From Cirrosporium novae-zelandiae (Eukaryota): 64,000 nucleotides of DNA. The DNA is taken from NCBI GenBank assembly GCA_026023565.1, contig JAPETS010000029.1:62001-126000 (forward strand). Reading direction: 5' to 3'. Below, one piece after another: positions 1-23,703 of the stretch (its first letter is position 1; each line of letters opens with the position of its first letter). Under the pieces are notes generated by a model. The model had not been told where the DNA came from. It searched no databases and was given only the letters and a program-made list of their open reading frames with translations. The position numbers and the translations under genes were made by a program.

Positions 1-1300
1 TTCCAACCCTATGTCGCTGAGTTTGACAACATTGATAATGTTGCTAGTCAGATTATGTATGTATAGTACCATACATTTTTCAATCGCAGGGCATGAACAG
101 ATCTATCTAGATGTAGGAGGTTGATGATGACATCTCCATACACTTTATCAGCAGTAAGCTATCCTTCTACAGTCCAGAAGACTATGAACGCAGGCGTAAA
201 GACGACGAGGTTCTCTCTCGAATGGATGAGACACGTTTGATGGTTCCGGAATCGGCTTCAAAACGATAAAGGACCCAGTCATCAGCTATATCACAGGTGA
301 TCAGCTTGGCTCGACCAGCTGAATAGATATTGTTAATGTATGCAATATGGCCGCTAAGCTCTAGTTGCTGAGCAATCTTGGCAGGTAAGTTGTCAATATC
401 AATGGTACGTCTGGTAGCTTTATTGAATACCTTATTTGCTGATTCTCCCCGCCTTTCTTGACCGAACTGATTCAGCTGATCCTTGTTCGGATCCCTAGGC
501 TTGAAGCCAGCTAGGAGGAGGTAGGGATGACATGCCCAGCACTTATCATGAGTTGTCGGAAGTGCATCAAATGTGGAAGAGTCAGTACGAGCAGATTACG
601 AGTTTGAGGACTTATTTGACTGGGTGTTATCCTTTAGTTTCGCTGGCTTGACTGGACGAATGGTCTCATTCTCACTAGATAACTTCATGTTCTTTTCAAA
701 GGACAGATCACGAAGTAGAGTATCTATATTGTGGGACAAACCTGAAGACAGAGTTTCTATCGGACCTAGATGCTGTACTTCTCAGTGATAGTGCCGAGCA
801 ACTTCCAATAACGAACTTGCTTGCTAATCTCGGTATCCTGTTGAATGAGCGCATGGGCAATCTAATGAGAGCGTAAAAATGTCAGCGTTCTTGGGCCTTG
901 TAAGATGTAGACGAAGGAACCTCCGAGCAGCTGAGAAATGACTAGTTTCGGGAGACGTAGCGAATCGAGCAATGAGAATAGTCCAGGCTGATGCTGGAGT
1001 CTTCGCGTTCTCGATTATCTCGAAAACGGCGGGACCGACAGACTGGAAGAGCCAGAACTGAGCCGTGTGCTTATCGTCTTGTGTTTCATCCTCTTCCATT
1101 TATCATTTATGAATCGCCTGTTGAAGTCGCTCACTGGCATCAAAGGTGTGAAGTTTCTTGACATCATCTTCATTCTTGAAGTCCACAACAGGGTACCCTC
1201 GAATCAGGGCAAAAACAAGACGTTCCCCGATGTCAGATAAAGTAGGATTCGACCTACTGACAGGTTCTATTTTGACTGAACAGAGCTTGGTAAGTATAAG
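1..1300 (-). mobile_element. Degenerate Ty1/copia LTR-retrotransposon gag-protease region, running off the left edge
   Basis: Minus-strand translation across stops and frameshifts gives copia gag-like 'FWLFQSVGPAVFEIIENAKTPASAWTILIARF' (824-1099), a knuckle remnant 'THDKCWACHP' (~525-555), a protease-like 'DDWVL...DSG' (~245-285) and 'YGDVII...LRLKNVWY...NLTSNIINVVKLSDIG' (1-140), which matches the copia L.NV.YVP.L..NLISV.KL...G pattern. In-frame TGA/TAA near 1100-1105. Upstream boundary is approximate. Confidence 0.8.
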
Positions 1301-1385
1301 GAATTGAATGAGCTTTATGGACCATGATTACCATTGCTTGCGTTATTACGCTTCTTGGTGGTCAGCTTCGCCGGCGAAAGGAATA

Positions 1386-1946
1386 GACCAGACCGACCAG
1401 ACCAAGGCCCTTGGTCTGGTCGGTCACATGATGAGACATGGGTTTAATTGGTCAGTGAATAATTGTATAATATGAGTTAATCAAGGTCTTGGCGGAGGCA
1501 TTGAAGTGTTCTTTACCAGCAGCATCCTAGCTAGGGATATCACAAAAGCTGGAATAACCTGCTCTATTCCAGCTAGCTAAGCACACCACAAAAACTGGAA
1601 TAATATGCTCCATTCCAACTAAGGCATTGCCACATTCTGCCGTCCATTGTCCCAATTCCAAAGCTTTCCTTAATAATAATGTAAACTCGTATGCGGAATT
1701 AAAAACATAGGCGCAAAAGTCAGTAAAATGCTCAGCGGAAACCTCACTCAGGGGCACACCCGGCGGGTATTCGGGGGTGGTGAAATATATATTAATTATA
1801 CGCTTTTAGCTCTAGTCCAAACCCAGAATTCAGAAATCTCTAACTCCGATATCCTTAACATCAACAAAATTCCCTTCTCTACCATGAAATTCGCATTTAT
1901 ATAGACCAGATAGACCTTGAGTAGCTAGGGTCTGGTCGGTCTGGTC
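1386..1946. repeat. GACCA/GACCG-based inverted repeats; probable DNA-transposon end or MITE relic
   Basis: Perfect 17-bp palindrome arms at 1391-1407 and 1409-1425 (gaccgaccagaccaagg-c-ccttggtctggtcggtc). An 18-bp sequence at 1386-1403 is inverted at 1929-1946, preceded by TAG (TAGGGTCTGGTC...). Confidence 0.55.
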
Positions 1947-2034
1947 GATCTAGGTTAGACCGCTTATTTAGTCTGGAGCTTCATCTCCGAATCGACAGCC
2001 AGAGCACGAGAGAAGCGTCAGGGCGAAAAATGGG

Positions 2035-2288
2035 TGACACGAGGTACTCATAATTTCTTAAGGCTACTAGGATAGTAGACGAATGACTTGATTGATTATC
2101 TATCTATTGTTGTGAGGGAATATGCCTATTACTATGAGGGAATATGAGGTACATTGTTTCCAAGAACTTGCTCTCGAATCTCGCGTTCTTTACGCGTTAA
2201 TCCCAGCTAGCGGAACTTAGGTTTAACCCTACGATCTCCAAGCCCTAGATTTTCCCTAACTGGGAAGGCGCCTCGGGGGTCCGTTACA
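2035..2288. mobile_element. Putative solo LTR (~254 bp)
   Basis: Bounded by TGACACG...CGTTACA (TG...CA with imperfect terminal inverted repeat); internal direct repeat tgagggaatatg x2 (~2113-2146). No matching target-site duplication seen. Confidence 0.4.
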
Positions 2289-2330
2289 ATCAAGTGCTTT
2301 GTAGGACAGCACATAGGAGACAATTACAGA

Positions 2331-2420
2331 TATAAAAGCATGTTCAAAGTAGGTTGGTGGTTACGTCTCAAAATATATCCAATCTTTTTGTTGCCTTTAC
2401 ATGTAGGGAAAGAAAAATGG
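2331..2420 (+). promoter_or_regulatory. TATA-like box and eukaryotic start context of the nrdD-nrdG gene
   Basis: TATAAAA at 2331-2337, 86 bp before ATG 2417; start context AAAATGG (A at -3, G at +4). Confidence 0.4.
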
Positions 2421-4894
2421 CGACATCAAAAACAACCCTAGATCATGCTGAGTTGGTCAAAGAATATCTGACCAAGGCGACATGGAAGGGTGCCGAGAAC
2501 GCAAACTCGACCTACTCGCACCAGGGATTGATGCAATACATTTCAGGGCATATCATATCCGAATATTGGCTCAACCATATCTACACGGAAGAAGTACGAC
2601 GTTGCAGCAAGGAGAACCGCGTCCATATCCACGATCTAGGATTTTTGAGCGCGTACTGTTCAGGATGGAGCATTGAAGACATTTTGCTTCGAGGATTCGG
2701 CGGAGTCGAGAACAAGATTCAGTGCAGGCCACCAAACCACCTCAACACGGCCCTTAACCAGACGGTGAACTTTTTGTTCACACTTCAGGGCGAGCTCGCT
2801 GGAGCGCAGGCCTTATCCAATTTTGATACATATTTGGCGCCCTTCATTCGCTATGACGGGTTGGCATACGTGGAAGTGTTCAAGTATATGCAGAGTTTTG
2901 TGTATTCGCTCAACGTTCCTACGAGAAGCGGCTTCCAGGCACCGTTCACGAACATCTCCATGGATTTGATCTGCCCTAAGAGCCTCGAAGGACAGCCAGT
3001 GATTATCGGAGGAGAGCCGCATGCAGAATGGGTATATAATGATTTCCAAGAGGAAATGGATATCATTAACCGCGCATTTACGGAGGTGATGGTCCAAGGA
3101 GACGGTAACGGCAACATCTTCTCGTTTCCAATTCCGACGTACAATCTATGTGAAGGGTTTGATTGGGACTCACCACGGTACGAGTCCATCTGGGAAATGA
3201 CTGCCAAGTACGGAGTGCCGTATTTTGCCAACTTCATCAACAGCGATCTGAACCCTGAGGATTTCCGGTCGATGTGCTGCAGACTGCGGCTCGATGTAAG
3301 CAAGCTGCACAGCCGCGGGGGGGGATTGTTTGGGGCTGTTCCATTGACAGGCTCGATCGGAGTTGTTACGTTGAATCTTCCCAACATTGCGATGCGCTCT
3401 TCTGGGACAAAGGAATCTTTTTTCGCGGAGCTCGCCGATACACTTCGGGTGGCAAAGGACGCGCTCGAGATTAAGAGAGAGGTTGTGAACGGACACTCTG
3501 CATTGTATCCGTATGCAGCATATTATTTGTCGGTCATTAAGAAACGAACGGGATCGTACTGGACAAACCATTTCAGCACAATTGGGGTGATCGGCATGCA
3601 TGAAGCGTTAACCGTATTATTCGGAAAGGGAATCGTGGAAAATAAGGACTTTGCATGTGATGTTCTAGAGTTTATCAAGGAGAAGCTTCAGGATTTCCAG
3701 AATGAAACGGGAAACCTTTACAACCTAGAAGCCACTCCGGCGGAGAGTACCAGCTACAGACTGGCACAGCGGGATCAAGAGCTCTTCCCAGATCACAAAA
3801 TCCCAAGCTTTTATACCAACTCAACAGCGCTTCCAGTAAACGCGACGGATGATTTGTTTGAAGCTTTGGGCCATCAAGAGAAGTTGCAATGTGCGTACAC
3901 CGGAGGAACAGTATTCCATGCGTTCCTAGGTGAACGACTTTCCGGATGGAAACAAGCACGGGATCTTGTGCGGACGATTGCTACACGGTATCGCATTCCA
4001 TACATTACACTAACACCAACATTTAGTATCTGCAAGACACATGGGTACATCAGTGGAGAGTCGCCACAATGTCCAATGTGTAAGGAAGAATGCCTTGTGT
4101 ACTCACGGATTGTGGGATACTTCCGGCCAACCAAGGACTGGAACAAGGGGAAAAAGGAGGAGTTTGCTATGCGCAAGCTCTATCGTTACACAACGGAGAC
4201 TGTCAAGGAGAACAAGCTACCAGTGATTACAGACCTTCCGGTTGCTGGATACACCAAGCTTACGCTGAGCGATTACCCTGGTAAGATCCAGGCATCAATC
4301 ATGTTTACGTCGCTTTGCAATCTTTCGTGTCCGTGGTGTCATAATGGCTCAATCGTACGAGGCGAACGCGAGGATATCACGGCACAAGACGTGTTTCGTC
4401 AAATTACCGCGTCGGAACACAAGAACCTAGTGATTTCTGGTGGCGAGCCGACGATCAACGCGGGGCTCATCCCTTTCCTCCGGCTTCTCAAAAAAGCAGG
4501 TGTCAGCGTTAAGCTGGACACGAACGGAACAGCGCCGGAGGTTTTGCGCCGGATTTTCGCAGAGAACCTGGTCGACTTTGTGGCCATGGACATCAAGTGC
4601 GCTCTGCACAAGTACAAGAAAGTGGCGGGACGCTATGTGGATGCGCGTGTGCTGGAAACCAGCATAAGGATGATCAAAACGTCCAATGTGCCATACGAGT
4701 TCCGCACAACTGTGGTGCCTTCACTTGTCGATGTTGAGGACTTGATGGCGTGCAAGGAGCTTGCCGATGGTAAGCTCACGGTCCAACGATTCAGACGCGG
4801 CGACTCGAACTTGCGCGAGCGCTTCAGGGATTGCACGGAACAGACCGAAGAGGAGTTTGAGTCCATGGTTGCGCAAGTATTCAAGGAGACATGA
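2417..4894 (+). CDS. nrdD-nrdG: Class III anaerobic ribonucleoside-triphosphate reductase NrdD fused to radical-SAM activase NrdG (825 aa, intronless)
   Basis: NrdD motifs: W..ENAN.TYS.QGL, HIHDL...YC (Cys 2657), finger loop RSMCCRL (Cys-Cys 3275-3280), YNLEATPAESTSYRLA, YTGGTVFH, Zn site CxxH-x8..CxxC (4031-4081), glycyl-radical loop YSRIVGYFRP (Gly 4115-4117), WNKGKKEEF. NrdG motifs: L.DYPG, CNLSCPWC (4316-4339), ISGGEPT, KLDTNG, DFVAMDIK, YEFRTTVVP. The first ATG of the track ORF (2354 is a non-ATG start) is 2417. Confidence 0.95.
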   Translation: MATSKTTLDHAELVKEYLTKATWKGAENANSTYSHQGLMQYISGHIISEYWLNHIYTEEVRRCSKENRVHIHDLGFLSAYCSGWSIEDILLRGFGGVENKIQCRPPNHLNTALNQTVNFLFTLQGELAGAQALSNFDTYLAPFIRYDGLAYVEVFKYMQSFVYSLNVPTRSGFQAPFTNISMDLICPKSLEGQPVIIGGEPHAEWVYNDFQEEMDIINRAFTEVMVQGDGNGNIFSFPIPTYNLCEGFDWDSPRYESIWEMTAKYGVPYFANFINSDLNPEDFRSMCCRLRLDVSKLHSRGGGLFGAVPLTGSIGVVTLNLPNIAMRSSGTKESFFAELADTLRVAKDALEIKREVVNGHSALYPYAAYYLSVIKKRTGSYWTNHFSTIGVIGMHEALTVLFGKGIVENKDFACDVLEFIKEKLQDFQNETGNLYNLEATPAESTSYRLAQRDQELFPDHKIPSFYTNSTALPVNATDDLFEALGHQEKLQCAYTGGTVFHAFLGERLSGWKQARDLVRTIATRYRIPYITLTPTFSICKTHGYISGESPQCPMCKEECLVYSRIVGYFRPTKDWNKGKKEEFAMRKLYRYTTETVKENKLPVITDLPVAGYTKLTLSDYPGKIQASIMFTSLCNLSCPWCHNGSIVRGEREDITAQDVFRQITASEHKNLVISGGEPTINAGLIPFLRLLKKAGVSVKLDTNGTAPEVLRRIFAENLVDFVAMDIKCALHKYKKVAGRYVDARVLETSIRMIKTSNVPYEFRTTVVPSLVDVEDLMACKELADGKLTVQRFRRGDSNLRERFRDCTEQTEEEFESMVAQVFKET

Positions 4895-5201
4895 ACCTTG
4901 GATTGACCTTTCTTTTCTCTGTTATATAGATACCAACCTGCTGGACTAGAACTCATCAATATGTATATGTAAGGAAATCTAGATAATACCAATGATGCTT
5001 TTTTACCCGATGAAAATTTTTATTGAAGCACGTCTCCCCTTTGGCGCTTACAAAGGTACAAATTACCCGCGAGAAGTACTTAGCATGCTTCCCACAGCAC
5101 AATCGGCGTTCTATTTCTAGGCGTTTCAGCCAGAATTAAGTTAATTAGCTATTCTCGGCTTTTGATCTGCTGCTCACGCGAGTGACAAGCGTGACAAGGA
5201 A

Positions 5202-5436
5202 AAAAAGCGCGAACTCACCTGATCAAAGAACCCTTTTTTCCCATTGCCCATTATTGAATGATTGTATTAATTGATGCAACAACATGTAAACACACAACGC
5301 CAAAACAGGCTTAACAAACTATTCCAAGACCACCACTATATATAATATAATTATAATGGAATGTATTGGATAGATAAGGGATTAGGGGGTGAGTCTAAAA
5401 AAATGGAAACCCGAAATTTGCGAGTTCGCGCTTTTT
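5202..5436. repeat. 15-bp perfect inverted repeat flanking ~205 bp of AT-rich spacer
   Basis: aaaaagcgcgaactc (5202-5216) and gagttcgcgcttttt (5422-5436). Confidence 0.55.
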
Positions 5437-6502
5437 GGTGTTACCTCGCGTGGGGGCTTTACTTACTCTAGAAAGACAGAATCCCAGTACCCTGTTTGAC
5501 GTGACATGACACGCTCGGGTGGTGGCAAATTCAATATATTTATTTTCCTTCCTGAGTCTAGCTTCCCCAGCACGCGTTGTAACACCCTTAGATCTTCCCG
5601 ATTAGGGAATCAGCTGTGTGCAACGTTCTTTCTCTAATTAACATGTGCTGCTACCTACCGAGCAAACCAAGCGAACGCATAAAAAGCATTAATTATTTGT
5701 TCATAACAATATCTTATCCTTCATGTTTATATTCGGTATCGCTCCTTGATTACTATGGCAAAGGGAGAAATAAAAAAGAAGAGAAAGAGAAAACCTTTTC
5801 GTTATAGGTTCTCTTATATGGAATAATGTATTTTTAGGTAAAAAGATAAAGGGGTAATGAATTAATGTTGTATAGCACGCTACGAAAGAGAAGAAAAAAA
5901 AGAAAGATAGGTAAATAAATAGGTGATATAAGTGCAAGCTACAAAAAGGAGAAGGTTGGTACGGTTTAAAGTTGAAGGTAAAGGTAAATGCCACCGTTAT
6001 TGTTATTGATGAGGGGTAAGTGAGAGGTAGATGGAATATGGAATTTTTTTTGTGGGAGAAAGATGATGGTGGTGGCGGCGGCTATTGAAAGGGGTCGAGG
6101 ACATGTGGTAGGTTATTCTTATGCTTCTTCTTATTCTTCGTGCTTCAGGCTCTTGCTTTGTATGCTCGCGAAAGTCCGCCATGTTGGGGAGATTGTATGG
6201 GGATGGCTTCTTCTGCTTCCTCCTCCTCTTTTTCTCTCCGCACCAACAAGAACTTTTCCATTTCTACAGGTCGAGAGCTATTGGCAACAGCATTATTAAA
6301 AATAACGTCTCCTTGCTTCCGATGTGGGGATAATGCCAATATAAGAACGGGATAACAAGGAATGCTAGGGAGGAAAGGGGCTACATCACCTTCGTCTGCC
6401 CATTTCGATTCATGAACTAAAACGGTTCAATGTCAGGATCAAAATGTACTGTACAAACATCATGCGGTATGCATATGCTATAGCAGGTTTCTCTATTCTA
6501 AG

Positions 6503-6930
6503 CTATTCGCACCCTATTAGCGAATATGCGGACTTGACAACTCTACCGTTAGATGAGGATATCATTGAGCTGACATGATCCAAGTCGAAGTAACTCTGTG
6601 ACATTTGATGCGGCGCTCCCATCGCTACATCCCAAAGCCTAATCATGCAAACTAATGCAGAAGCGACGATCTTACCATTAGGCAAAAAAACCACCAACTG
6701 GACGCGTTCCAAATGACCTTTCAGAGTTTGAAAAGATGGATTCCAGTCATCTTCAATCCTAGATACATTTTTGATCCATTTAGGGGCCTAGTCCGAAAAT
6801 TGTGTTTTAATTATGCTTTTCTCTCGGTTAAATACAAGAGTAACGGCATATACTCGGAGAGGCCTCTTCTCAATGATGGGTCGATAGTTAAGCATGAATC
6901 GTTTTCCACCATGGACCATGGAATATAACC
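6503..6930 (-). pseudogene. HET-E/NWD-type NACHT-WD40 (fungal NLR) pseudogene fragment
   Basis: Minus-strand translation 'MVHGGKRFMLNYRPIIEKRPLRVYAVTLVFNREKSIIKTQFSD*APKWIKNVSRIEDDWNPSFQTLKGHLERVQLVVFLPNGKIVASAL..MIRLWDVAMGA' matches the HET-E pre-WD linker and first WD40 repeat. In-frame TAG at ~6788-6790; second repeat decayed. Confidence 0.8.
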
Positions 6931-8789
6931 TGGGATCTTCGTTGGACTTGATTTTAACCCAGTTGGTCCCTCGGTATGGGCCACTTACTTTAATCAGGGA
7001 TGGATTCTAATTTTATCAACATAACAGCCCCTTCGGATATTTTTCGATCCAACCCAAGGCTTCTAGCTAGTGAAGAAGATGCTTCTGAAGAAATTTATAA
7101 ACCTCTCCGTTATAATTCAGGCTGGTGAAAGATGCTGGTTGCCATTTCACTAACGAGGGATCCTAGGTGGTCAAGGTCATAAATATCCTTCCTGAAGCTA
7201 CTAGGACCCGACACGAGATCTAAGTAGTTCCCAGTTAGATCTTTATGTACTTGGTTTTTTCTGACCCGGAATTGTTCATCCTTCACATCCTTCTATTTAG
7301 GAGGAAGTCACAACAGGAGGGATGAAACAGTCGAATCAGAGAACCGTGTTCGGCCAGAGTATACATCTGCTTTGAGGATTTTTGCTCCATTGCATAACCT
7401 CATGATGAAGCCCAACTTGTATTTTTTTTTTCAATGTATTGAGGTTTATGTTGGCGATGGTAAGCATTAAAAATGGCACTATCGGCACAGGATAGCTTGT
7501 CTAGCAGCCTACCCTGCTTCCAATATTCTTCTGATATCCCTTGAGACAAGATTCACATTCGTTGATAGTTCTAAGGACAAGAATCTAATACAGGTGAGAT
7601 TTCGTTCGATCATTGTAAGCTCGTCCAAAATATTCTAGGGCGCTTGTTATTTCTCGATGAAAACGGTTCGACGGCTCTTCGTTCGAGTTTGGAGCAATAC
7701 TCTAAGGGACAAAGAGAATATTTGTCCACGATATCCGGGTAGCTGCAAGTGTGGTGGTTCTTGGATCTATGAGATGGAGATATAAACGAACTTTCGGGAT
7801 GGAATAGGTTGCCATAAATACGTAAGCTCAGGCTCAGGCTCAGGCTCAAATAGCTATGCGGCGGAGCGTGGGCGCCAGCCTTAGCATTTATGATGGGTTA
7901 TTGTGTTGTGACAACTTAGCAGAATTCTCATCATTTATTTGTTACCATCTTTGGCTAACCGTCATTTAGCTCCTGGTTTGAAAAAAAAAAGCCCAGGAGA
8001 CCCCAGACATCCACAAGGGGATCGCATCCCATAAGAAACACCGATGCCGTGGATAATTACTGATCACTTAGGAAGAAGATCCCATGGGGATGCTATTCCA
8101 TGTGAGATTCTATAAAGAATATGGGATCCGTAGTCTACAAAGGTAGCTAACTACCTAGGTACAGTACATACACTATAGGCTAAGATCCCGCCCAAAACCC
8201 CAGCATCAAAGCTATGGAGAGAAATAGACACATCAAACAATCTCCCAGTAGAATTATTTTTTTTTCGCTTATGGAGTGGCTCATTAGCTAGTCAAGTAAT
8301 ATGGTTTTATGAACAACCCTATCCCCTCCTACATTAAGGAAAGGAGCAAGACTAATGATGAAATGAATAACGATGGTGACTAATTATGATTGCGATTGTA
8401 TCGAGGAGATGGAACTGATGATGTATAGGGAGTCCATAATGCAAACATATATACGTGAATGATTATTTGTATGATATGATATGGTTGATACACGCCCGTA
8501 CTGTGGATCATGCCTGCACTTGAGGATTGAGGGCTGAGGTTGTAAGACTGCTACAGCTTGATCAACCAGTTGTGAATAAGATAAGAATGTAAAAGGTTAG
8601 ATGATATTTATTGTATAATATGTAGCACGAGGTATTAGTATACATTGCATTACACCTTCCATTAGCCGCATCTTCCTACTCCATCCTAAGGCAAAGTCCG
8701 AGGCTCCCTAGTCAACACATCTCCACTCTCCCTCAACACACCGCCGTCATCATCATTTACACCTTCCTCACCTCTCTGCCGTCCCACAC

Positions 8790-9481
8790 GTTCCAAAATA
8801 GTTGGGGTGGCGGGAGTATTTGAAGAGGCCAGTGTTGCAGAATGTTCCGCCGGCGGAGATCTTGCTGTTGTTGCTGGTGTCGGTTGTATCTGAGGAAGGC
8901 CTTTATGGTCTTGTTCTTAAACCGGAAATTTTGCACATCTGACACGCTTTCCATGAAGAATCCGAACGCTCATAATATAACGCCTGCGATGTCGTAGTCC
9001 ATCCCGAAAGGCCGCTGAGGATAGCTCGCAACATTTGGCGAATTTTGAAACGTGACCGGAAGAGACACAGTCCACACCCAGGTCATCTGAAAGATCCAGA
9101 AACCAAGAAATGGGAAAAACTTGTCATGCATCCCGTCGAAGCGGTCGTCTTTTCCGGTTTTTAGGATCCGGAAGAGGAGGAAGCTAGAGAAGCGGGAGGC
9201 CCAAAGGATGAGGAATATGGAAACCACGATTTGGCGAGCATGGTGGTGGCCTTAGAGGGAGAGGGTGAGGATGGAGGAGAACGAAGTTGGTGCCATCGGC
9301 GAGGTCTGAGGATAGTGAGTATTTTTTTTAGTTTAGAGATAAGTTCAGGGGTGGATGATATACCAGTTAGCTTATCGAATTTCAGGGTGAAAGCTATTAA
9401 GAAGAAAAATAATTGATATGCGACGGTGACAAGGAAAGTGATAGCGAGATAGTAATTATCAAGGACATGAATTTCTAACAT
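8790..9481 (-). pseudogene. DUF1295 / steroid 5-alpha-reductase-like membrane protein pseudogene
   Basis: 'HVLDNYYLAITFLVTVAYQLFFFLIAFTLKFDKLT' | intron 9306-9363 | 'DLADGTNF', then 'FLLFRILKTGKDDRFD', 'VWTVSLPV', 'FFMESVSDVQ', 'GLFKYSRHPNYFG'. Disrupted by a frameshift (~9270), TAA (~9252), TGA in place of Trp (8970-8972) and a further frameshift before the YSRHPNY motif. Confidence 0.85.
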
Positions 9482-10420
9482 ATTAAAAGACAGTTACAAC
9501 AATCAGACCAGGCCAAGGTGATGTGCAATGCGCAAAAAGAATATTTTATACAGTTCCATTGTGGTAGGATACACTGGTAAGATGGGATGTGTAGCTTGTT
9601 TACAACAATGAAAATGAATTTAGACTAACTAATTACCAAGGACTTGTAAGAGGCATTTACTTTGTCGGAGTGACGTCGTAGATCTCGAAATCGGATCGGA
9701 TTATCAAATAAGCTTAAATACTCTATCAGGTCGGCATCGGCAATAGGACCCTCCGTGCGATTTAGGGCCACAGAGCTTAGAATTACATCCAAGTTGAATT
9801 TAGAAGAGACAAATGTATTTTGATGCCCTCAAGCAGTCAAAAACTAAGTTGAACTAATAGACATAAATCAACGTTTAAACAATAACCAAGAAAGCTATTG
9901 AACATCCGCCATCTCATCTCAATGCCCTTAAATCTTGAATGTGAACGCCGACACTCCCCTTCATGCTAACTTCTTGCAAGACTCCATGACTATTACTTTC
10001 ATGAGGACTATCTTGACTATCGAATCGTTATCTACATCACCCACCGTCATTCGCGACATCTACACCTATGCTGACTTGACTGCTCACTGTATCATAGCAC
10101 CAACCATTTCACCTCTGGCAATCCAAGTTGCGGCGTGAGATCACACCAATTGTAACAATATTCCGAATGCTGGGTCCTTGAGTCCGAAGTTGAAAAGTGT
10201 GCCATGCTATAGTGACCGATGTTATAATCAATGCGCAACAACACTTCCAATTTCGAATTATTCAGGTCTCCTAGATCAATAGCCCTCAGCTCCACCGTGG
10301 CCAGAGACAAGACTTTTGGCCTGAAGCGCTCATGAATAGACCCCACTTCTATCAGGCGGAGGAAATCTAGGAATGGAGCCGAGTAACTATGCGAAGAAGA
10401 ACTATGCAGGCATGGAATGT

Positions 10421-11628
10421 TCAGGAATGCGATGCCCCGTGGTTTTGAAGAGCCGCATTCCGAACAGGGGCAAAGTAAGGATGTGCCATAGCTTCCTTGG
10501 CGGTTAGTCGTTCCTGAATACTGTTAGTAAAGGGATATTTGCAATCAGCATTTATGATAGACTTACTTGATGATCATATCGGAGAAGTTTATCAAGGAAA
10601 TCAATAGCATCATTACTAACGAATCTTTGGTTATCTTGATTGACAAAACTGTGCCAACTCTTCTTGGGGAACCGACCCAGTATGTCATCATACTGAGTAT
10701 CAAGTTCAATGTCATATTTGTCTAGGTACTCGAAGAGATCGTCTGTACCCAGAACCTTGGCAATTTTTACAAGTTGATCTGAGTTGCTGTTGCCATGGAA
10801 GAAGGGTTCTTTGCGGAAAATCATCGAGGCGAACATGGCTCCCAGTGACCACATATCCAGAGAATAATCATATTCTTGAAAGTCCACAAGAAGTTCTGGC
10901 CCTTTGAAGTATCTCGAAGCAACCCTGACATTGTATTCCGTACCTCGGTGATAGAACTCGGCAAGACCCCAATCGATAAGGCGAAGCTAAAGTTCATTAG
11001 TCTTTTATGGATATCCCATATATTAGATAATAATTACCTTGCGCTTTTCATGGTCTATCATAACATTATGTGGTTTAACATCCCGATGCATAATACCCTT
11101 ACTATGACAGTAGTCCAAGGCCTGTACAGGGTTTAGCAAGATAAAGGCGGGGTCATTAGGATCCAAGACCGACCTTGAGAAGTTCATAGATATAAAACCG
11201 AACGTCGTAATCTGAAAATTTAGGATACAGAGTTCTAAAGTCCGTATTGTTGACATATTCAAATATGAGAGAAGGTGTTTTGCTTTGACTGTCTCGAACA
11301 ACATCTAGTAGCGCAACGATATTCGGGCCTCCTGAAAGGTTTTGTAGGATCTTGATTTCACGCTTAATCTTCTTCTTTTTGACCGGCTTCAGAACCTTGA
11401 CAACACATTTTTGATAGTTGACTATATTGATGCCTTCGAAGACTTCCGAGTATTTTCCTCGGCCTGCGAGGCTGGTTAGCGAAGAAATGGCGAACAAGAA
11501 GCGGGCAGCGAACCAATCTTTCTGACCACCTCATAATTCTCAAGAACACCCCACGATATATTGACGCTATCATAGTCCCAGTATGCTCTTGGCATCTGTT
11601 CATTCACATCTGCATACACACGCGCCAT
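10421..11628 (-). CDS. cka1: Casein kinase II catalytic (alpha) subunit, 333 aa, 5 exons
   Basis: Exons 11628-11514, 11463-11174, 11121-11038, 10986-10567, 10513-10421 (GT-AG, total 1002 nt). MARVYADVN..., [54 protein letters not shown]. Confidence 0.97.
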
Positions 11629-12028
11629 GATGTAGGGGAGCAGACTCGGACTAGGTCCGCCCTTGACTTTGCGGAGGTTTCAAGAGGAATAATTCAAGAG
11701 AATATACTTAGCAGGGCCCTTTGCTAGATATTGGATAGCATTCAACGACCAGACGAAACAACAAAATAATGGTTGTACAATAGCACCAGTTCGTGTCGAG
11801 AATCTGGAGTCAGTGATGTTGATCGATCTCGCAAAAGCAAGCCTTCAGCCCAACTTTGAACGGATAAGGTAGGGGTAGGCGAGCACGTGATGAACCTAGA
11901 AATTTGGCTCTATTTCTTTTCTGTGCCGTCGATCCTTCATTAATTTGAAGATGCGTCAAGTGAAGAAACACAGATAAATACAAAGCAAGGGACTGGGATA
12001 ATATATCTAAAGCTATGAGTATTTCAAC

Positions 12029-13020
12029 ATGTTTTATGATCTCAACGTCCCTTGGACGCCAAACGATTCCGAACTGCCAGTGACCCTGTCTTTCCTTGTT
12101 GAACGTGAGCTTTCTAGTTAGCTCTTTTATATGATTGAGCTAACCCTACTCTAGTTGGATATAATACTGTCGCCCTAAATCATACTATCTCTGGAAAGCT
12201 CCCTTCAGATCTCACATGCCCCATTCCAAATCCTCTTCCATTCAACGTCCCAGCATCATTGCGCGTGCTCCGAAGATGCACAATCATTATCTCTGACCCT
12301 TCTCAAAACTACCGTCTTTCTTCGCTCGCATCGAATTATGATATTGTTGCGCTACGCCCCACCACTGAAAAATCTCTTCAACAAGCTTCAAATTCCCTCG
12401 ACTGCGACCTGATCTCTCTGGACATGAGCTCGCGTTTCCAATTCTATTTCAAATTTTCAACCCTCAAGTCAGCAATCGAAAGAGGGGTGAGACTTGAGAT
12501 CTGCTATGCCGAGGGGATTCAATCTCTAGATAATAGTGCCAGACGAAATCTTCTCAGCAACTCAACCCAGCTCATTAGAGCCACAAGATCAAGAGGTATC
12601 ATAATCTCAAGTGAAGCAAAGACAGCGCTTGCTTGCAGAGGCCCTTGGGATGTCATAAATCTGGCAGCTGTATGGGGGTTGGGACAAGAACGAGGTCGTG
12701 AGGCAGTGGGAAATGAAGCTAGGCAGGTCGTAATGCAAGCTACCATGAAGAGAACAAGTTACAGAGGAGTCGTAGATGTGGTATACGGTGGAGAGAAACC
12801 TAAAGAAACGGCTTCATCTACAAAAGGGAAGGGCCTAGAAAGAAAGAAGGTTGTAGGGACAGGGCAGAAAAGAAATATGGATGTTGCGAACGGAGATGAG
12901 CAAGCACCTGGTGAAGCAGAGAAGATTTCGAAGAGAGAAATGAAAAGAAGAGCAAAGAAGGCTAAGCTTGAGAACACTGTCGGACAGAATGAAAGCCCAC
13001 CTCAACGGGGCAAACCCTAA
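12029..13020 (+). CDS. RPP1: RNase P/MRP subunit p30 (Rpp1), 313 aa, 2 exons
   Basis: Exons 12029-12104 and 12155-13020. MFYDLNVPW, LGYNTVALNH, YDIVALRPTTEK, DLISLD, AIERGVRLEICY, RGIIISSEA...RGPWDVINL. Divergent from CK2 across 400 bp. Confidence 0.93.
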
Positions 13021-13784
13021 GGACAAAGATGAATCCAAAAGCCTTTTCCACGAACCTAAATACTGAAATCGGACCAAATTTTTAACACGATACCCAACAT
13101 CCAATGTTCGCATATTCGTCCGTCCTTGCGGGAAATCTTCGGCCAACCGAACCATTCGAGACTCAATGCTATTTTGCATCAATATCGATTTTAAGCTATT
13201 CTAGTAGAGTCCTCCGGGCAGCACACAGTCTATGGTGCCGAATATTTTGTTGCCTAATCTAGGATGACGACAATGAAGGATCTTTTAGCTTTATGCGTTC
13301 AGATGCTTATATTCACCCAAAGATAAGCCCACTTTCGATGTAATCCTTTTAATACAACTAGTGATGACATTGACTCATCCATCACTTACAAGGGAGGACC
13401 TTGGAGGAAGATGGTGATTAAATTTGAAAAAAAAAAGGGAGCAAATGGCCTTGTGTGCTAATATGCCGTCATCTATCTGCCATATTGGATACTGGCGGTC
13501 GAAGATTGTGTGTAGCACATGAATTGGAGCGGTTCAGCCACAGAAGAAAATTCCTTTAAGTTAGGTCCTATATGTCCAAAATTCGCTTTCAATTATCAAT
13601 AAACGCCATAATTGGGGTATAACATCTTTTTATCTTTTCCTGCCCTGCTACTTCCACATCACTGTTTGCTCTTACCAAGGTTGAACCCGTATCTCTCAAG
13701 GAATTATGACAAAAGAATGAAATAATTGTCTTGCTTACGGCAGAGGCTCCATATGCCAGTTACCGATTATGATATTATTTCTTT

Positions 13785-15068
13785 CTACCCAGGCCCACCC
13801 GTCTGCCTTAAAACATCTCTCCCTCCAAGGCGTAGCGTCAACGTGCTCTGCAAGTCGAATGTGCTTATATCAAACGTCGAAGGCGATGCAGTGATAGTCT
13901 GCAGGGTCGACAACGACGCTTGCGAGACCCGCTTCGCAGCCGTCGATGTGGTCGATATGTTACTCCCAATTGTAACGCCCAAGTCTCCGTTATCAAACAA
14001 ACTCTGCTGGCAAAGGCAAGCGCATACGTCACACGCAGGTAAACCCGATGACGACGACGAAGATGCTATACTAGCGGCGGAAGCGGCAGCGGAAGATACG
14101 GCCAACGATGTCTGCGCCACCTGCACGGTCGAGGATGCAGGTACAATAGCCACCACGACCGAGGAATTGTTTGAAGAAGCCGATGCGGGCGAGACGATGG
14201 TTGCGAAGGATGTCTGACCTGCTGTCACCTATACATGCATAATATGGTTTCTCATCATCAGCAACTAGCCATACTATCAAGTACAAATCAAACCATCCAA
14301 AGGAAAAACAGATAAGAAAAAAACATACAATTGACGGGTTATCTGTAGCTGTAACCGTAACTCTATTCGTGGCCGTAGCAGTACAATTCCCACTAACAGT
14401 TAAAAAACCCTGAAAAACCGTCGTCGTCTGCACAATTGTTTGCATCAACGTCGAAATTCGCAACTCCTACCCAATTAGTTAGTCAATTCTATTCAATCCG
14501 GTCCGATCCAACCCATTTCTCCCATACACACAGTGCATAACACATAGCACAGAGCACACAACAACAGCCACATCTATTAATTCCCTAGGTAATTTCTTAC
14601 CAACCCACCCACCCAACATCATAACCCCCCTAGAACAAAAAAAAAGGACCGATCTCCACAACAGAGAACATAAAAAATAAACCATACCGTAGTAGTCTGA
14701 AAGCTAACTTCCGTAAACGTAGTAATAGACCTCCCATCCGCCGCCGTATGCGCTATAAGGTTCGCAGAACTGCTACTCGCAGCTATTGCCGCCGAGGTGC
14801 TTATGCCCGTGCCTCCGCTCCCCTGGCCTAACCCTTGGCCGATTGTGAGTACCAATGTAGAGTATTGTCCATCATTATTATTGTTATTGTTATTGTGGTC
14901 GTTGTTATTGTTGTTGTCGTGATGATTATGTGCCTGAAGAAGATGGAGTTAGTTTTTTGTTTTGGGGGGATGGAAAGGGAGAGGGGGGGGATGTTTTACG
15001 TGGGTCAAGCTCCAGAATTGGAGGATTGCTAGGAGGGAGGCTCTGAGTTTGGGACGGCGGACGCGCAT
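13785..15068 (-). CDS. Secreted Ser/Thr/Ala-rich hypothetical protein with His/Asn tract and CxxCxCxC motif (298 aa, 4 exons)
   Basis: Exons 15068-15000, 14933-14688, 14466-14329, 14228-13785; all three introns are GT-AG, phase 0, and splice into one open frame. N-terminus MRVRRPKLRASLLAILQFWSLTHA is signal-peptide-like; contains ACDVCACLC. Confidence 0.72.
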
Positions 15069-18000: not shown

Positions 18001-21000
18001 GGGGTGCAATATGCGTGTTACATTCATCGGTTGTGATTTAGGATTCAACTACGAGATAGAATAGGGCCCAAGGAGGAAGGTTGGAAGTTATTTTTCGGTC
18101 TGCGCCAGGGCTGGGGTCCGCTATTTGGGTATGGAAGGGAAGGTTTGTGAGCCTTTATAGTCTAATCGCATATTGGCCCCTGGGGTATTTGATGGGAAGA
18201 CATCGCAGAAACAGCCCCACAGGTCGAAGTTTAAGAGGGCATATGCGTTGTCATTATGCGTCAAGGCCTCAGGATAACATCAAAAAGAGGACTGCCGCAG
18301 GATTCTAGCGTTGGGCTTGCTAGAATTCTTATTTGATAGACTTAAGATTCCAGTACTCCTAATATCTGATAGGGCGACCGTAATGATAGGTAATGGCATC
18401 CTTATGGAGTGAGTTTTCCGAAGGGATCTAGAGAGTATTTTTAACACGCTCCAGGAAATTTGGGCACTTGTGATTTGTTTCCCGTAAAAACAACTAAGGA
18501 TGATCTATTTGCAAGATCCAACAGCATATTGGCTTCTGATATGGTGGGTCCAAAAGTGAGATGTATCGATGTGAAATCAAGATAGATATCCTGAGTAAGG
18601 GCTTAGCTCCACTGCAGAAACTATGACTTAGTGTCTTATCTGAATTAATTATATTGAATTTGATGGAACTGTGTATCAAACACGAATATACTAAAGTCAT
18701 CTTTAGAATTAAAGCCAAGGGATTATGATGAGTTGAATATCATAACCGAACGAAATATGCATATCGGTTCTAGTAGTAATTCACCAATGTGAAAAACTCC
18801 ACTGGATACACTTCGAACGATAGCCCTGATACTATGTCAAGCTCATTATGGAATCCACCGTTGCAATTTAAGTTGGCTTCGCGGAATAGATCACCACAAC
18901 GAGGGATTCTTCTGGGATTTTCATGGTATCTAACAAAAACCGGCAAGATTCTCGCAATGATTCCGGGATCGGGAGTGATAGCTAGTGGTTTTCTATGGGT
19001 AGGACTTGCGAAAACTTTGGCTTTATGCTAGTGACCTAAAATTTGGCTAATCATTAGCAAAGGGCTTTAGGTCAAGATAACACTCATCGAGGACACAAAA
19101 ACACTCGCGAAAGGCTCATCAGTACTTGAACTGCTGGAAGAGTGAAAGCTGAAGGTACCCCTAGAGACTTTTCAAGTTTTTCTAATCCGCCAATCCCCAG
19201 GTCAATAGGCGTGTGTTCAGAGCTGAATTGAGCTAGAGGTTGTTCGATAGCTGACTTTACACTTTGAGATGAGGTGAATAAAGAGTATTCTTAGAAAGTA
19301 GTGGAGCTGCATCCGAAGGAATTTCATAGCATGTATCTGAAATTTAAATATGAAGGAGAGTTCATTGGGTTGTTTTTGCCGTAATCGAGTATTGATATTG
19401 GATGGTATGCGTTGCTAGAGCTCTTGGAGCTAATAAAGCAGGACAAGGATAGCGACAAATGGTTCCTAGAAGTAACTAGTAATCATGCGGAAGACAACTC
19501 GTAATAATGAAAACCTATGCCTACATCCAAAACACTTCCGGAATGGCCAACGAGAGAAATGAAGAATTGATTGGAACCCTGGATGCTGTTAATCCTCTTT
19601 GAACCGATACTTTCGACATAAGACCAACAAGAAGTATGTTCCCAACTATCGGGATTTTTTTCAACTGGACATAAGAATTATTGGTCTCTAGCTGGCGTGT
19701 GTCTGGGTGTGTGATAGCCCATAATATAACTATTCTGGGAAGTGGTCGTTGATTTGGTGTTGGACAATGGGGCAAGTTGAGCTTAAGCAAAAAGTCGCAT
19801 CATATTTCCCTTGGCCATCCTTAATCACAATAATAATTGCACATTAGACTCCACAAAAGTTGATACCCGCTCCCGCAGTGAGCTGATATCATGCTGTCTC
19901 CAAGAGCAAATTCTTTCGGTCCCTCGGCGACGTGCGTATGGAACGGAGTGCAAAAGTAGAATGCGGATAGATGCTTCACAGTCTACGGTCGAAGGGAAGT
20001 CGAAAAGAAAATTGTGTCAATTCGTCTGATATGTTATCGGATTATTCGGTGACAGTAGACTTGTCAGATATCGCTAAGTACAGGTAGTGTATTTCGCAAA
20101 GAAGCTGTGAAGTAATAGAATAAATGGTTGATAGATGCTTTGTAATCTAGCAGCTATTTTGCTAGGGCTCGAGTTCAACAAAGATTAGGGATGCATCAAA
20201 GTTCGATGATGAAGCTGAATGGTTGGAGAACATAAACGAACGAAACTGTGAAGATACCAGTAGTTCTAATGTTCCTTGGTACAAGATAACGTCGAAGTCG
20301 GGCCCTGGCACTTGAAGGCGTTTTGGGCGTTCGTGGGCGCTCCTACTGCGGTTGTGAAGCACCGCCCGCGGAAAGAGAAGGGAAATAGAAAGGCCAGAGA
20401 AAATGCCGAGTTAGCGTGTACACGGCATAGAAACGAGGGTATAGGCTGCAACCAGAAATAGAAAAGAGCTGTCAAAGCTGACTCTGAATTCCTATCTGTA
20501 GTGTGCATGCAGGCAACAGCTTCGATTCAATAATGATCCTGGAATCACTGACACTGACCGGGCATTGGGTTTGAATTGAATGGCGATATGGATTGGAAAT
20601 CATTAACTAATATCCACCCCGTTGAAGGATTCATACCAAAGCAAACTCAAGTTCTCCAGGCCCTCTTTAAAGCCACCTGCTATAGTGCGAATCCTTAAAC
20701 GGGGCCTGTTAGAATAAGTAAAAACTGCTTGAGGCTGGCAATAGCAAAACAGTTTCCCCCAACGAGGTGCTCTGTCTTACTTCAAAGGTCTTTACCCAAA
20801 CAAGCGATTCTTTGAAGCAAGAATGCCGAAGGATGGGCTCAGGACTGGCCTTCTTTGTTTCCAGCACAATAGATAAGGTTGGAGGGATTTCGTTTTAAGC
20901 TTATGTCTCAGTTGGTACGAGCATTGCAGCAATAGCTCAAGTAATGGAGATTTCACAAGCTCGAGTTCGTTGTCACTTGCTCCTCTGTTGCATCGCCGTC

Positions 21001-21132
21001 CCCGTCTAGCATGGGTCTGCCCTGTTGAGACAGCTGAAGCGACCAGGGAAGGCCACCTCAAAGATCAACAGCTAGGGCTCCTCTCCGTCGGGTATCGACT
21101 GGAACAGAATTGAGCAAAATACTTGTGGATCA

Positions 21133-21235
21133 TCAAGCATGAAAAGTGAGCAAGTCATGGCAAGCGAGTAAGTCATGTACAGCATGGAAAGCATGGAAAA
21201 CATGTAAAGCATGGAGAGCAAGTAAAGCATGTAGT
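21133..21235. repeat. Degenerate 9-bp minisatellite (AAGCATGGA-like)
   Basis: agcatggaa agcatggaa aacatgtaa agcatggag agcaagtaa agcatgtag. Confidence 0.6.
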
Positions 21236-23703
21236 CTGTACGATAGATTTTGACAAGTTGACAGGAGGAGGAAAACAACAATCGAGGCTTATCGGAAAAA
21301 GTAGGGAATTGATTGGTGGTGTTGAGGAGGGAGAGTGGTGGAGGTATGGGATGGCTGTGTTTTCCGTCAGCCAAGCATCTGTCATGCTGCAAGACGTCGG
21401 TGTCCGAGTGAGGTACAGACTACCTCTGAAAGGAAATGGATATGTCAATGCCCCAGTCTTCGGAAGCCGAGGAAAGGTGTGGGATAGAAGAATAGATGGA
21501 GTATCCCTAAGTATCTTACCGTTTACGAGTGAGACAGCCTGGTGGACTAGTTTGGGCTGGGTAATTCACTTTTGTTTTCTTTTTTAGAGCGAGTAGCGTT
21601 TAGATTGGAGATTAGCATGTAGCTTAGATGGAGCAATGAGAGAGGCGGGAAAGTAAACTAAGCATTTCTAGGGCAGTTTGTCGGGTTTGCAAGGGTTGAT
21701 AATGGTTGTTCCATTTCCCGTTCGCTTAATTTCTGAGGTCAAAATAAGGTTGGCGCAGCAGTCGAATCTGGAAAAGTCTTAGGGCTTTCGGGGTCAGACT
21801 AGACAAGTAGGCAGACTAGGATCACTAGGGTTATTTTTAGGGGACGATCGTCCTAGCTTTTCCCTTCCTTTGCAAACAATCCTGCCTTAATTAGAAGCCT
21901 AGAAACTCTCAGCCCAATTTTAACCATTCCGTCCAACCACATTCCATCGTGTCTAGGCTTAAATCCATAATCAGCCTAGTCCCGTCTTACGGTTGCTTTA
22001 GTTCAGCCGGCGCCGCTGCGGGCATAACTGAAGCCTTCCACAGTGGTAAAGAACATGGGGCAAGGGGTAGCAAAGGCTAACTTGATGTACCACGGCCGAC
22101 CAGGTACAGGCCAGGGCTTTGCTTTGCTTCGACCTCTTGATGACCCCCCTCCCGTCCTCATTATTATTATTCATCTCCTTTGGGCTTAAGCTCTCGGGGT
22201 AAACGGCGCCTTTTTTTTTGTTAATCCTCATCAACCTCATCTCATTCTAATTTGCTCCTCCGATCCATTACAAACATTACCGTCACTGTGTGCATGCTCT
22301 CTGCTGGCCCATTTGAACCTCCTATTGTGAATTCTTACCGGTTGCTCATAATAGGTAGCACAGCCGAGGCAAGCTGTTCTGTTATGGTTGGTAAACCACC
22401 ATGCAAGCTTGCTTGCTTGAGTCAAAGTCGAGCCATTTATTCGGGTTTCAATACCACGCTCTAGACAACTAGGATGTTAGCCAGCATCTCCCGCTTGCTC
22501 CCCGTTCACTTTGTCCTCTTGTTAGAAACATCTTGAATTGGCGACACCTTGAACGTAGTCTGCATTTCTCATGAACCTCTATGGAATGAATCACTACTGG
22601 CTCTCTTTTTCGTGAAGGTTCCTGACCCTTCTGGATCCTTATCTCGCGCCAGCTTAACGCCCGGATGCATAGTTGCTCATGATGCTTCCCGTCACGCTAT
22701 GACAAGGATTGTCCCTTCACTGGCCGGATAGTTGCGTTGAGCCGTCTGCTCAGGTGGTCTCCAAGATGGCCCCCAAGAAATGTGGAGTGCTTTTTCAGCA
22801 TTCGAAATCAAAGATATTAGCCTGCCATGACCTATGACTCTATCATAGCAGATACAAAGTGAACTTGTCCCAGGGTCAGAAAACATCCCGCCAATCGCAC
22901 CTTTGCACGTTAGCCGCAAACTTACTAGCTAGATAAGGCTGGACGATATTTCATGCACGTATCCGTCAGAGGCTCGCCTAATTAGTAACAAGAGCCACTG
23001 ACTGGTGTGCCGCAGCAAAAGTATTCTAAATTCTGATGCAACTCCAGATTATCATAGACGGCCAGCCAGCATGAACGTCAAATTTGCTGGGAGTTTGGAA
23101 GAATCTTACCCATTCCGGGGGCCTGAAATAGATACTCGGATTGTGACTAAGCGATTTCTTGATTGCTCTGCCTTAATAGAAGCCCAGTAGGGGAAGCGGT
23201 GTTGCGGCTTGAGTGGCTCGATATATGATCCCACCACACGATTGAAGTTTGAGATTTATGACTGCAGATGCTGACCTTGGCGCTTACTTAGGTACAGAAA
23301 TATGTTTACAATTTTTACTGTGATTTGTAAAAATTAAGGCAGGTGAATGGTCCATTGGTGATAGCGATTTTACAATACGCCGCTAATACGAGGAAAAATA
23401 TAAGAATTGAAAGTTAAACGGAGATCATGGTGGCTGGTAAAAGACGAGGATCATAATTAACTAGGAAATTGCCGTTCAGGTCCTGCATAGCACATGCAAA
23501 AATTCATCTTGGTGAAAAGGATTGTATCTAACCTTCGGAGCTGGAGAGTTGGAGGAAGTGGCTTAGGTACTGCTGCTTCATTTGGAACATCTAAACAACC
23601 TTTTTGTGGGGAACAGTGAACGCTGCAAAGCTGGACAACAGTACGAGAAAGAGTTATTCGAAGATGTGCTGACATAACTATACTCCAACAACGATAATCT
23701 AGT

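Follow-up and report, generated by a model that had tools for sequence, protein, structure and literature searches.

An intact NrdD-NrdG fusion gene in the genome of the fungus Cirrosporium novae-zelandiae

We analyzed a 64,000-nucleotide (nt) stretch of the Cirrosporium novae-zelandiae genome (assembly GCA_026023565.1, contig JAPETS010000029.1, positions 62,001 to 126,000 of the forward strand), hereafter the window, and focused on a gene at 2417..4894 on the plus strand whose product joins NrdD, the catalytic chain of anaerobic (class III) ribonucleotide reductase (RNR), to NrdG, its radical S-adenosylmethionine (SAM) activase, in one polypeptide (NrdDG). It is commonly held that eukaryotes need O2 to make deoxyribonucleoside triphosphates (dNTPs) de novo, which they do with class Ia RNR, and class III RNR is O2-sensitive.

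Domain architecture and catalytic residues of the fusion protein

The NrdDG gene is one unbroken, intronless open reading frame (ORF) that encodes 825 amino acids (aa) plus a stop codon and has no internal stop (window protein P0001). The frame is open on the plus strand over 2354..4894 and reaches its first ATG at 2417. A TATA-like box (TATAAAAG, 2331..2338, plus strand) lies 79 nt before this ATG, and the start context is AAAAATGG; both were read from the sequence and are weak evidence. The NrdD catalytic domain occupies residues 27-589 (2495..4183, plus strand), where Pfam PF13597 (NRDD) matched without a break over its full length (profile positions 1-562 of 562, E 5.3e-182, with 606.8 bits where the cut-off is 26.2). 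The NCBIfam models NF006126 (867 bits, cut-off 548) and TIGR02487 for NrdD (500.7 bits, cut-off 326) were likewise exceeded. No ATP-cone precedes the domain, in that the Pfam search found no match to PF03477 in the window protein and the NF006126 alignment begins only at profile position 95, leaving the cone positions missing. The NrdG activase domain spans residues 609-781 (4241..4759, plus strand), as delimited by TIGR02495 (NrdG2, 154.9 bits, cut-off 131.15) and a fold match to pyruvate formate-lyase activating enzyme (PFL-AE), and Pfam Radical_SAM matched residues 629-769 (E 1.8e-15). The sequence-only reading of this stretch had described an 825-aa intronless NrdD-NrdG fusion with all catalytic elements, and the profile scores above cut-off, together with the motifs found at checked coordinates, bore this description out.

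Structural comparisons agreed with these assignments. When solved structures were searched by sequence, the best relatives were Thermotoga maritima NrdD (4coi/4u3e, E ~1e-38) and, more distantly, phage T4 NrdD (1h78, E 8e-10), and the C-terminal part matched PFL-AE (3c8f). An AlphaFold2 model built on a 42-protein alignment had a mean predicted local distance difference test (pLDDT) score of 84.4, with low confidence only at residues 1-6, 170-173, 296-310 (the finger loop) and 592-603 (the linker), the last two falling below 50. Foldseek aligned the model to solved NrdDs (8p2s, 4u3e and 1hk8) with template-modelling (TM) scores of 0.71-0.77 on target length, with a fold match to 4coi as well, and to PFL-AE (3c8f, 3cb8) with TM scores of 0.70-0.72. 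These fold matches and the invariant putative Zn ligands described below indicate that the protein has the 10-stranded barrel with finger loop and the putatively Zn-binding C-terminal region of an NrdD. Between the two domains lies a linker, predicted to be a disordered tether, at residues 591-608 (4187..4240, plus strand). The R586-P621 spacing that contains it is 34 residues in the window protein and ranges from 21 to 76 residues (median 39.5) across 42 fused proteins. It is textbook knowledge that the activase binds NrdD, and the modeled tether fits a flexible leash that would let the activase reach the flipped-out glycyl loop of its own chain or of the dimer partner.

We judged the conservation of catalytic residues in an alignment of the 42 fused proteins, whose identity to the window protein goes down to 51%, and found the motif residues of both domains listed here to be invariant in 42/42 unless stated otherwise; all lie on the plus strand. 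The NrdD part carries HIHDL (2624-2638, coordinates verified), Y80-C81 (2654-2659), which corresponds to Tyr124-Cys125 of T. maritima NrdD in the 4coi alignment, and M286-C287-C288-R289 (3272-3283), an MCCR variant of the SCCR motif of the NrdDh subclass, in which C287/C288 correspond to C329/C330 of the T. maritima enzyme. The finger-loop region (residues 296-310, 3302..3346) has invariant to near-invariant G302, G303 and F305, and thus holds a Phe, although which of its residues is the homologue of T. maritima Ile359 is not settled. E438 (3728-3730) aligned with T. maritima Glu495, as counted from the alignment. A putative Zn site is formed by C539, H542, C552 and C555 (within 4031..4081), and the glycyl-radical loop, R564-I-V-G567-Y568 (4106..4120), aligned to that of T. 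maritima NrdD. In the activase part, the radical-SAM [4Fe-4S] motif C634-x3-C638-x2-C641 (CNLSCPWC, 4316..4339) is followed by G675-G676-E677 (4439..4447), which we take to be the SAM-binding GGE motif.

These residues can be compared with characterized bacterial enzymes. In the parts of the T. maritima study that we draw on (PMC4493059), Cys125 is the cysteine of the reductive half-reaction, Glu495 is an active-site Glu, and the C329A and C330A mutants are inactive; a third Cys and the Glu define NrdD2, MCCR is confined to NrdDh, and the NrdDh4 group combines MCCR with a Phe at the finger-loop tip (PMC4493059). Since the window protein has M286-C-C-R289, Y80-C81, E438 and F305, it is by its residues a member of the NrdDh subclass, corresponding to the NrdD2 type. 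It shares the Tyr-Cys pair, (S/M)CCR and the active-site Glu with the NrdDs of T. maritima (4coi, 4u3e) and Neisseria bacilliformis but has a fused activase where these have a separate NrdG, and its MCCR and Phe are NrdDh4-like, in contrast with the SCCR and Ile of T. maritima NrdD.

Genomic setting and relatives of the fusion

The protein-coding neighbors of NrdDG in the window are fungal: a polyketide synthase (PKS), an AflR-like regulator, RNase P p30 (12139-13020), an MFS transporter, valyl-tRNA synthetase (ValRS), casein kinase II alpha and a DUF1295 gene fragment. The domain search placed ValRS, split by an intron, at 54256-56751 and 56762-57433 on the minus strand, and an ORF scan found casein kinase II alpha as three exon-like ORFs at 10552-11530, also on the minus strand. 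It had been claimed that the fusion lies on the same sequence as intron-containing fungal housekeeping genes, and these split genes agree with that. Moreover, a 40,835-nt contig assembled from run X1 spans window positions 1890-14000 with 0 differences at a depth of 357, confirming the continuity with the casein kinase gene that had been proposed as a check, and a contig over window positions 1-1405 had a depth of 363. The read-derived contigs break at a multi-copy repeat upstream of NrdDG (1377..1920), where word depth rises from ~360 to up to 1325 (~3.7-fold); a repeat search found no further copy of it inside the window and no repeats within the window that bracket NrdDG. The NrdDG gene is thus native to the fungal genome and physically continuous with fungal genes.

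Both neighborhoods of the gene had also been described as decayed, and its intactness as a sign of selection. We found no recognizable gene in the flanks (1-2416 and 4895-8300) when 38 ORFs of >=60 aa over window positions 182-12139 were scanned; the only flank matches were one to copia-gag at 824-1099 on the minus strand, sub-threshold at 19 bits (cut-off 27), and one weak match to WD40, and in their indices of repeat-induced point mutation (RIP) the flanks do not differ from other non-coding stretches of the window. The description of decay was therefore not supported, and because the flanks show no decay signal beyond the sub-threshold copia-gag match, the argument from intactness amid decay to selection does not follow.

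To place the host, we compared its ValRS with named proteins, none of which exceeded 74% identity: Candelina reached 74%, Xylona and Chaenotheca 72%, Lignoscripta 71%, Xylogone 68% and Fusarium 66%. These best matches place the host in a Pezizomycotina lineage without a close sequenced relative, nearest to lichen-type classes.

We then considered the 120 best homologues listed for the window protein, among which the tallies and named matches in this section were made. CX3CX2C follows the NrdD part in 69 of the 120, SMCCR is present in 112 and the glycyl motif in 116. The closest protein is that of Phaeoacremonium (81-82%; listed as a fused orthologue at 81%), and other named fused orthologues include those of Fusarium species (70-73%), Brettanomyces (68-70%) and Phytophthora (63%), as well as Ilyonectria, Dactylonectria, Neonectria, Mariannaea, Grosmannia, Apiospora, Xylariaceae, Xylogone, Pleurostoma and Ascosphaera. 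Fused fungal orthologues, annotated in dozens of fungal genomes, are about 66-82% identical to the window protein, and Schizosaccharomyces japonicus has an NrdD-only form as well. The best-listed bacteria reach ~57% identity over the NrdD part, and 45 of the 46 listed bacterial matches (P0075-P0120) carry the PF03477 cone.

An NrdD tree of 60 rows gathered the bacterial NrdDs that bear a cone and have a separate activase gene into one clade (support 100), with all fused forms opposite, and the window protein fell inside a 13-row fungal clade (96). A 25-row full-length tree from a careful search recovered the fungal clade at 99/99 and paired the window protein with Xylogone at 98/96. The window protein is therefore a single-ORF form that groups with fungal and oomycete sequences and apart from bacterial NrdD, as is characteristic of the eukaryotic NrdDG clade. 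Cone-bearing bacterial NrdDs (Caldicellulosiruptor, Tepidanaerobacteraceae, Desulfosarcina, Parcubacteria) share SMCCR and R(I/V)VGY with it but have an N-terminal PF03477 domain and an adjacent, separate nrdG, in contrast with the fused, cone-less window protein. The trees support an ultimately bacterial origin of NrdDG, in line with the horizontal acquisition that had been inferred for it.

We also scanned 76 bacterial loci (Desulfosarcina, other Desulfobacterales, Bipolaricaulota, Cloacimonadota and Clostridia), in 70 of which the nrdD ORF was resolved. None of these 70 loci from close bacterial relatives had an nrdD-nrdG fusion, scored as CX3CX2C in the same ORF; in all 70, nrdD and nrdG are parted by a stop codon. 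An activase motif lay <=700 nt downstream in 63 of the 70, and by row count it shared the nrdD frame in 37 of the 63. Because nrdG often follows in the nrdD frame after one stop, loss of a single stop codon could create the fusion. In many Desulfobacterales nrdG lies in the nrdD frame past one stop; in locus L049, this stop is at 6221-6223 and is followed by a TTG start at 6227. One candidate bacterial fusion, P0065 (961 aa, called fused), was not borne out by its relatives: the loci L001 and L009, 95-96% identical to it, have an in-frame TAG. Its fused form may come from a gene call that ran through the stop, or from natural loss of that stop.

Fused eukaryotic NrdDGs have been in print since 2010. 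In the portions of Lundin et al. (PMC3019208) on which we rely, single-ORF NrdDGs are described in Fusarium/Gibberella, Nectria haematococca, S. japonicus and Phytophthora, eight eukaryotic class III RNRs are listed, one bacteria-to-eukaryote transfer followed by fungus-oomycete exchange is inferred, and the fusion is suggested to have helped fixation of the operon in a eukaryote (PMC3019208). The sequence-only reading had offered the same idea, that fusion replaced operon co-expression, and the absence of fusions from the 70 bacterial loci fits it. A 2015 review again called the fused enzymes late in origin. The window gene shares with the 2010 set its single ORF, bacterial origin and clade, and the Fusarium and nectriaceous proteins are 70-76% identical to it; it differs in lying in another, unplaced Pezizomycotina lineage and in being a codon outlier. 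The 2010 paper knew two fungal genera, and the closest protein of the window gene is that of Phaeoacremonium. An NrdD-NrdG fusion is also reported in the diplomonad Trepomonas sp. PC1, where it reportedly followed an independent bacterial acquisition; in the sections of PMC4967989 consulted, it is placed near Clostridium and phage sequences, outside the fungal and oomycete clade. The caution that the family might not be new was well founded: the NrdDG fusion has been known in fungi and oomycetes since 2010, so the window gene adds a member and not a concept. What goes beyond the literature searched is its codon outlier status, a conflict between tree and taxonomic classes, the absence of the classes nearest to the host from the named matches, and a giant-virus-like NrdDG, to which we turn below.

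Codon usage, tree conflicts and metagenomic homologues

The relative synonymous codon usage of NrdDG correlated poorly with that of nine other coding segments of the window (r -0.08 to 0.26), compared with 0.04 to 0.59 among those segments themselves. Against the pooled other genes, its codon chi-square was 200 (41 degrees of freedom), or 0.24 per codon, while five other window genes in the same test gave 0.06-0.12 per codon. NrdDG prefers NNG and NNA codons in four-fold families (GCG 0.39 vs 0.09, ACG 0.36 vs 0.12, GTG 0.45 vs 0.15), and its CpG observed/expected ratio was 1.05, compared with 0.63-0.88 in eight of the nine segments and 1.13 in the short kinase exon kin_c. The bias is common to both halves of the gene (r 0.62).

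The tree also departs from the taxonomic classes. In the 25-row tree, Pleurostoma (Sordariomycetes) paired with Ascosphaera (Eurotiomycetes) at 97/95, and monophyly of the Sordariomycete sequences was rejected, costing 150.8 log-likelihood units (approximately unbiased [AU] test, p-AU 4e-74), or 34.0 units (p-AU 0.004) without the Pleurotus and P0059 (giant-virus-like) rows. The classes nearest to the host by ValRS are not represented among the named NrdDG matches listed. Taken together, the codon outlier status, the tree-class conflict and the absence of host classes from the matches suggest that NrdDG arrived recently from another fungus. We thus hypothesize a fairly recent fungus-to-fungus arrival in this lineage, and, judged by codon usage, the proximate source was probably another fungus. 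One further placement in the tree is unusual: P0016, from the basidiomycete Pleurotus ostreatoroseus, nests in a nectriaceous clade (Ilyonectria, Dactylonectria, Mariannaea) with Grosmannia, which reflects either assembly contamination or cross-phylum transfer.

Among metagenomic sequences, a 199-kb contig (L078) encodes at 10001-12688 a genuine NrdDG fusion without a cone (895 aa, 54% identical to the window protein). Its neighbors include a VLTF3-like late transcription factor (20312-21835, scoring 79 bits), an RNase H1 that carries a Cauli_VI domain, and a PARP domain. The other 11 ORFs that were scanned on this contig all stayed below the NCBIfam cut-offs, the RNase H ORF having only sub-threshold ribonuclease H matches. 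The L078 protein has a long branch in the 25-row tree, where it grouped with a protist transcript beside the fungal clade (95/93), and no other of the 42 fused proteins has an R586-P621 spacing as long as its 76 residues. Because this VLTF3-bearing contig encodes a fused, cone-less homologue that adjoins the fungal clade, giant viruses are a possible carrier of the gene. No paper on a giant-virus NrdDG was found in the literature searched, which omits most subscription journals.

Of 39 metagenomic loci, two were fused (L077 and L078, which represent one virus-like sequence), 21 were unfused, and the script did not resolve 16. In IMG/VR, 66 loci were fetched and none of the 38 that were resolved was fused. 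Two IMG/VR loci that had appeared to be fusions, L132 and L176, were rejected when their single-frame tblastn matches proved to be two ORFs parted by a stop. In three others (L117, L142 and L165), tblastn coordinates placed the NrdD C-terminus and/or an NrdG piece upstream of the main nrdD body, which suggests split or permuted gene arrangements. A separate group of metagenomic fused NrdDGs (P0067-P0073) is ~990-1040 aa long, and five of the seven (P0069-P0073) contain intein PF14890; since an intact SMCCR string is missing in all seven, the intein is probably inserted at the catalytic cysteines.

Proposed activity, alternative explanations and neighboring genes

We consider it very probable that the window gene belongs to the fungus itself and is an intact orthologue of the NrdDG fusions of eukaryotes, encoding an NrdDh/NrdD2-type class III RNR tethered to its own radical-SAM activase. 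In the mechanism that we propose, the C-terminal domain would bind a [4Fe-4S] cluster on C634/C638/C641 and cleave SAM to a 5'-deoxyadenosyl radical, which would take a hydrogen from G567, either in the same polypeptide or in the other subunit of the NrdD dimer. The resulting glycyl radical would then generate a thiyl radical in the MCCR/finger-loop region, and ribonucleoside triphosphates (NTPs) would be reduced to dNTPs. Since C81, C287-C288 and E438 form the pattern of thioredoxin-dependent NrdD2 enzymes, the reductant would probably be the cytosolic thioredoxin/NADPH system and not formate. In reports on the bacterial counterparts, the T. maritima NrdD reductant is a protein of >10 kDa and N. 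bacilliformis NrdD works with thioredoxin, as far as the portions of PMC4493059 considered here go. With no cone, ATP/dATP on-off control of the Prevotella copri kind is not expected. Because its activity would require O2 to be absent or very low, the enzyme would serve in anoxic niches as a supplement to class Ia RNR, which depends on O2. Glycyl-radical enzymes are cut by O2 at the glycine that carries the radical, and by analogy cleavage at G567 would in the fusion also sever the activase domain.

A working NrdDG would free fungi of wood, soil, fermentations and anoxic niches from O2-dependent dNTP synthesis. A single-polypeptide, self-activating, cone-less class III RNR would also be well suited to studies in glycyl-radical enzymology, and a fused, thioredoxin-driven class III RNR appears to be an enzyme form that has never been studied.

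More tentatively, NrdDG may be a horizontally mobile module for anaerobic dNTP synthesis among eukaryotes, received recently from a fungus, possibly carried by giant viruses, perhaps fused by in-frame stop loss, and yielding a one-polypeptide, thioredoxin-driven class III RNR; we regard this broader scenario as plausible, although short of probable.

Several points weigh against these interpretations. The continuity check is not independent, since run X1 is probably the assembly's own source. Synthesis of dNTPs under hypoxia or anoxia is what we infer from the sequence, and no paper on the biochemistry or expression of a fungal NrdDG was found in the same searched literature, with its gap in subscription journals. 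The proposed use of thioredoxin is drawn from residue patterns and two bacterial enzymes, and the NrdD2 definition (Wei et al. 2014) is taken second-hand from PMC4493059. According to the same source, in the parts used, E. coli thioredoxin does not support T. maritima NrdD and the role of the SCCR cysteines is unsettled (PMC4493059). With respect to recent transfer, the codon contrast is based on ~6,300 codons of other genes in the window only and may arise from gene-family-specific bias. The group used in the AU test was picked after inspection of the tree, and within the fungal clade the backbone lacks resolution. Finally, identity values alone are no proof of transfer, since NrdDG is more conserved than ValRS.

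These points bear differently on the alternatives. Bacterial contamination or a chimeric join in the assembly might be suspected from the prokaryotic origin of the family, the absence of introns and codon usage unlike that of the neighbors; however, one read-derived contig of uniform depth joins NrdDG to intron-bearing fungal genes, its nearest relatives are fungal (81-82%, while the best-listed bacteria reach ~57% over the NrdD part), and the fused, cone-less architecture was found in 0/70 bacterial loci, so we give this explanation almost no credence. It also seems unlikely that the protein is an NrdD1-like enzyme that uses formate, like those of E. coli and T4. These share its class, glycyl-radical chemistry and radical-SAM activation but have neither the third Cys nor the Glu, depend on formate, consist of two polypeptides and are far more distant from it. 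While one metagenome annotation of a homologue (P0025) reads "ribonucleoside-triphosphate reductase (formate)," and T. maritima NrdD retains a Met near Cys125 that is compatible with a thiosulfuranyl mechanism (PMC4493059, in the portion drawn on), the window protein has the NrdD2-defining third Cys and Glu together with the NrdDh-only MCCR, and its closest solved relative is T. maritima NrdD (E 1e-38) rather than T4 NrdD (8e-10). Still less likely is that NrdDG is an idle relic, or serves another role, on the grounds that the glycyl radical would not survive in a fungus that lives mostly aerobically. Class III RNR's established O2 sensitivity and the lack of a characterized fungal enzyme in the literature searched are compatible with such a relic, but the 825-codon ORF is free of stops and the catalytic residues of both domains are invariant in the 42 fused proteins down to 51% identity, a pattern that idle genes lose.

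Vertical inheritance is a more serious alternative to recent arrival from another fungus. Under it, a single entry into an early ascomycete would have been followed by many losses, and the codon oddity would reflect gene-specific constraint or low expression. All fungal fused sequences do form one clade (99/99), with its backbone unresolved; the high conservation of the protein (66-82%) could explain identities above those of ValRS; and a single entry into eukaryotes is what Lundin et al. inferred in the part of that work used here (PMC3019208). On the other hand, the codon-usage departure is strong and gene-wide, Sordariomycete monophyly is rejected, the pairs Pleurostoma with Ascosphaera (97/95) and window protein with Xylogone (98/96) conflict with fungal classes, and the classes closest to the host by ValRS are missing among the named NrdDG matches listed. 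We therefore take vertical inheritance to be a real possibility that nonetheless falls somewhat short of even.

Elsewhere in the window, a non-reducing PKS (SAT-KS-AT-PT-ACP-ACP-TE by Pfam) is encoded at 24762-30608 on the plus strand, an AflR-like Zn2Cys6 regulator at 43721-45190 on the plus strand, and a TRI12-like MFS transporter at 61347-63302 on the minus strand; together, the PKS, the AflR-like regulator and the TRI12-like transporter make up a secondary-metabolite locus.

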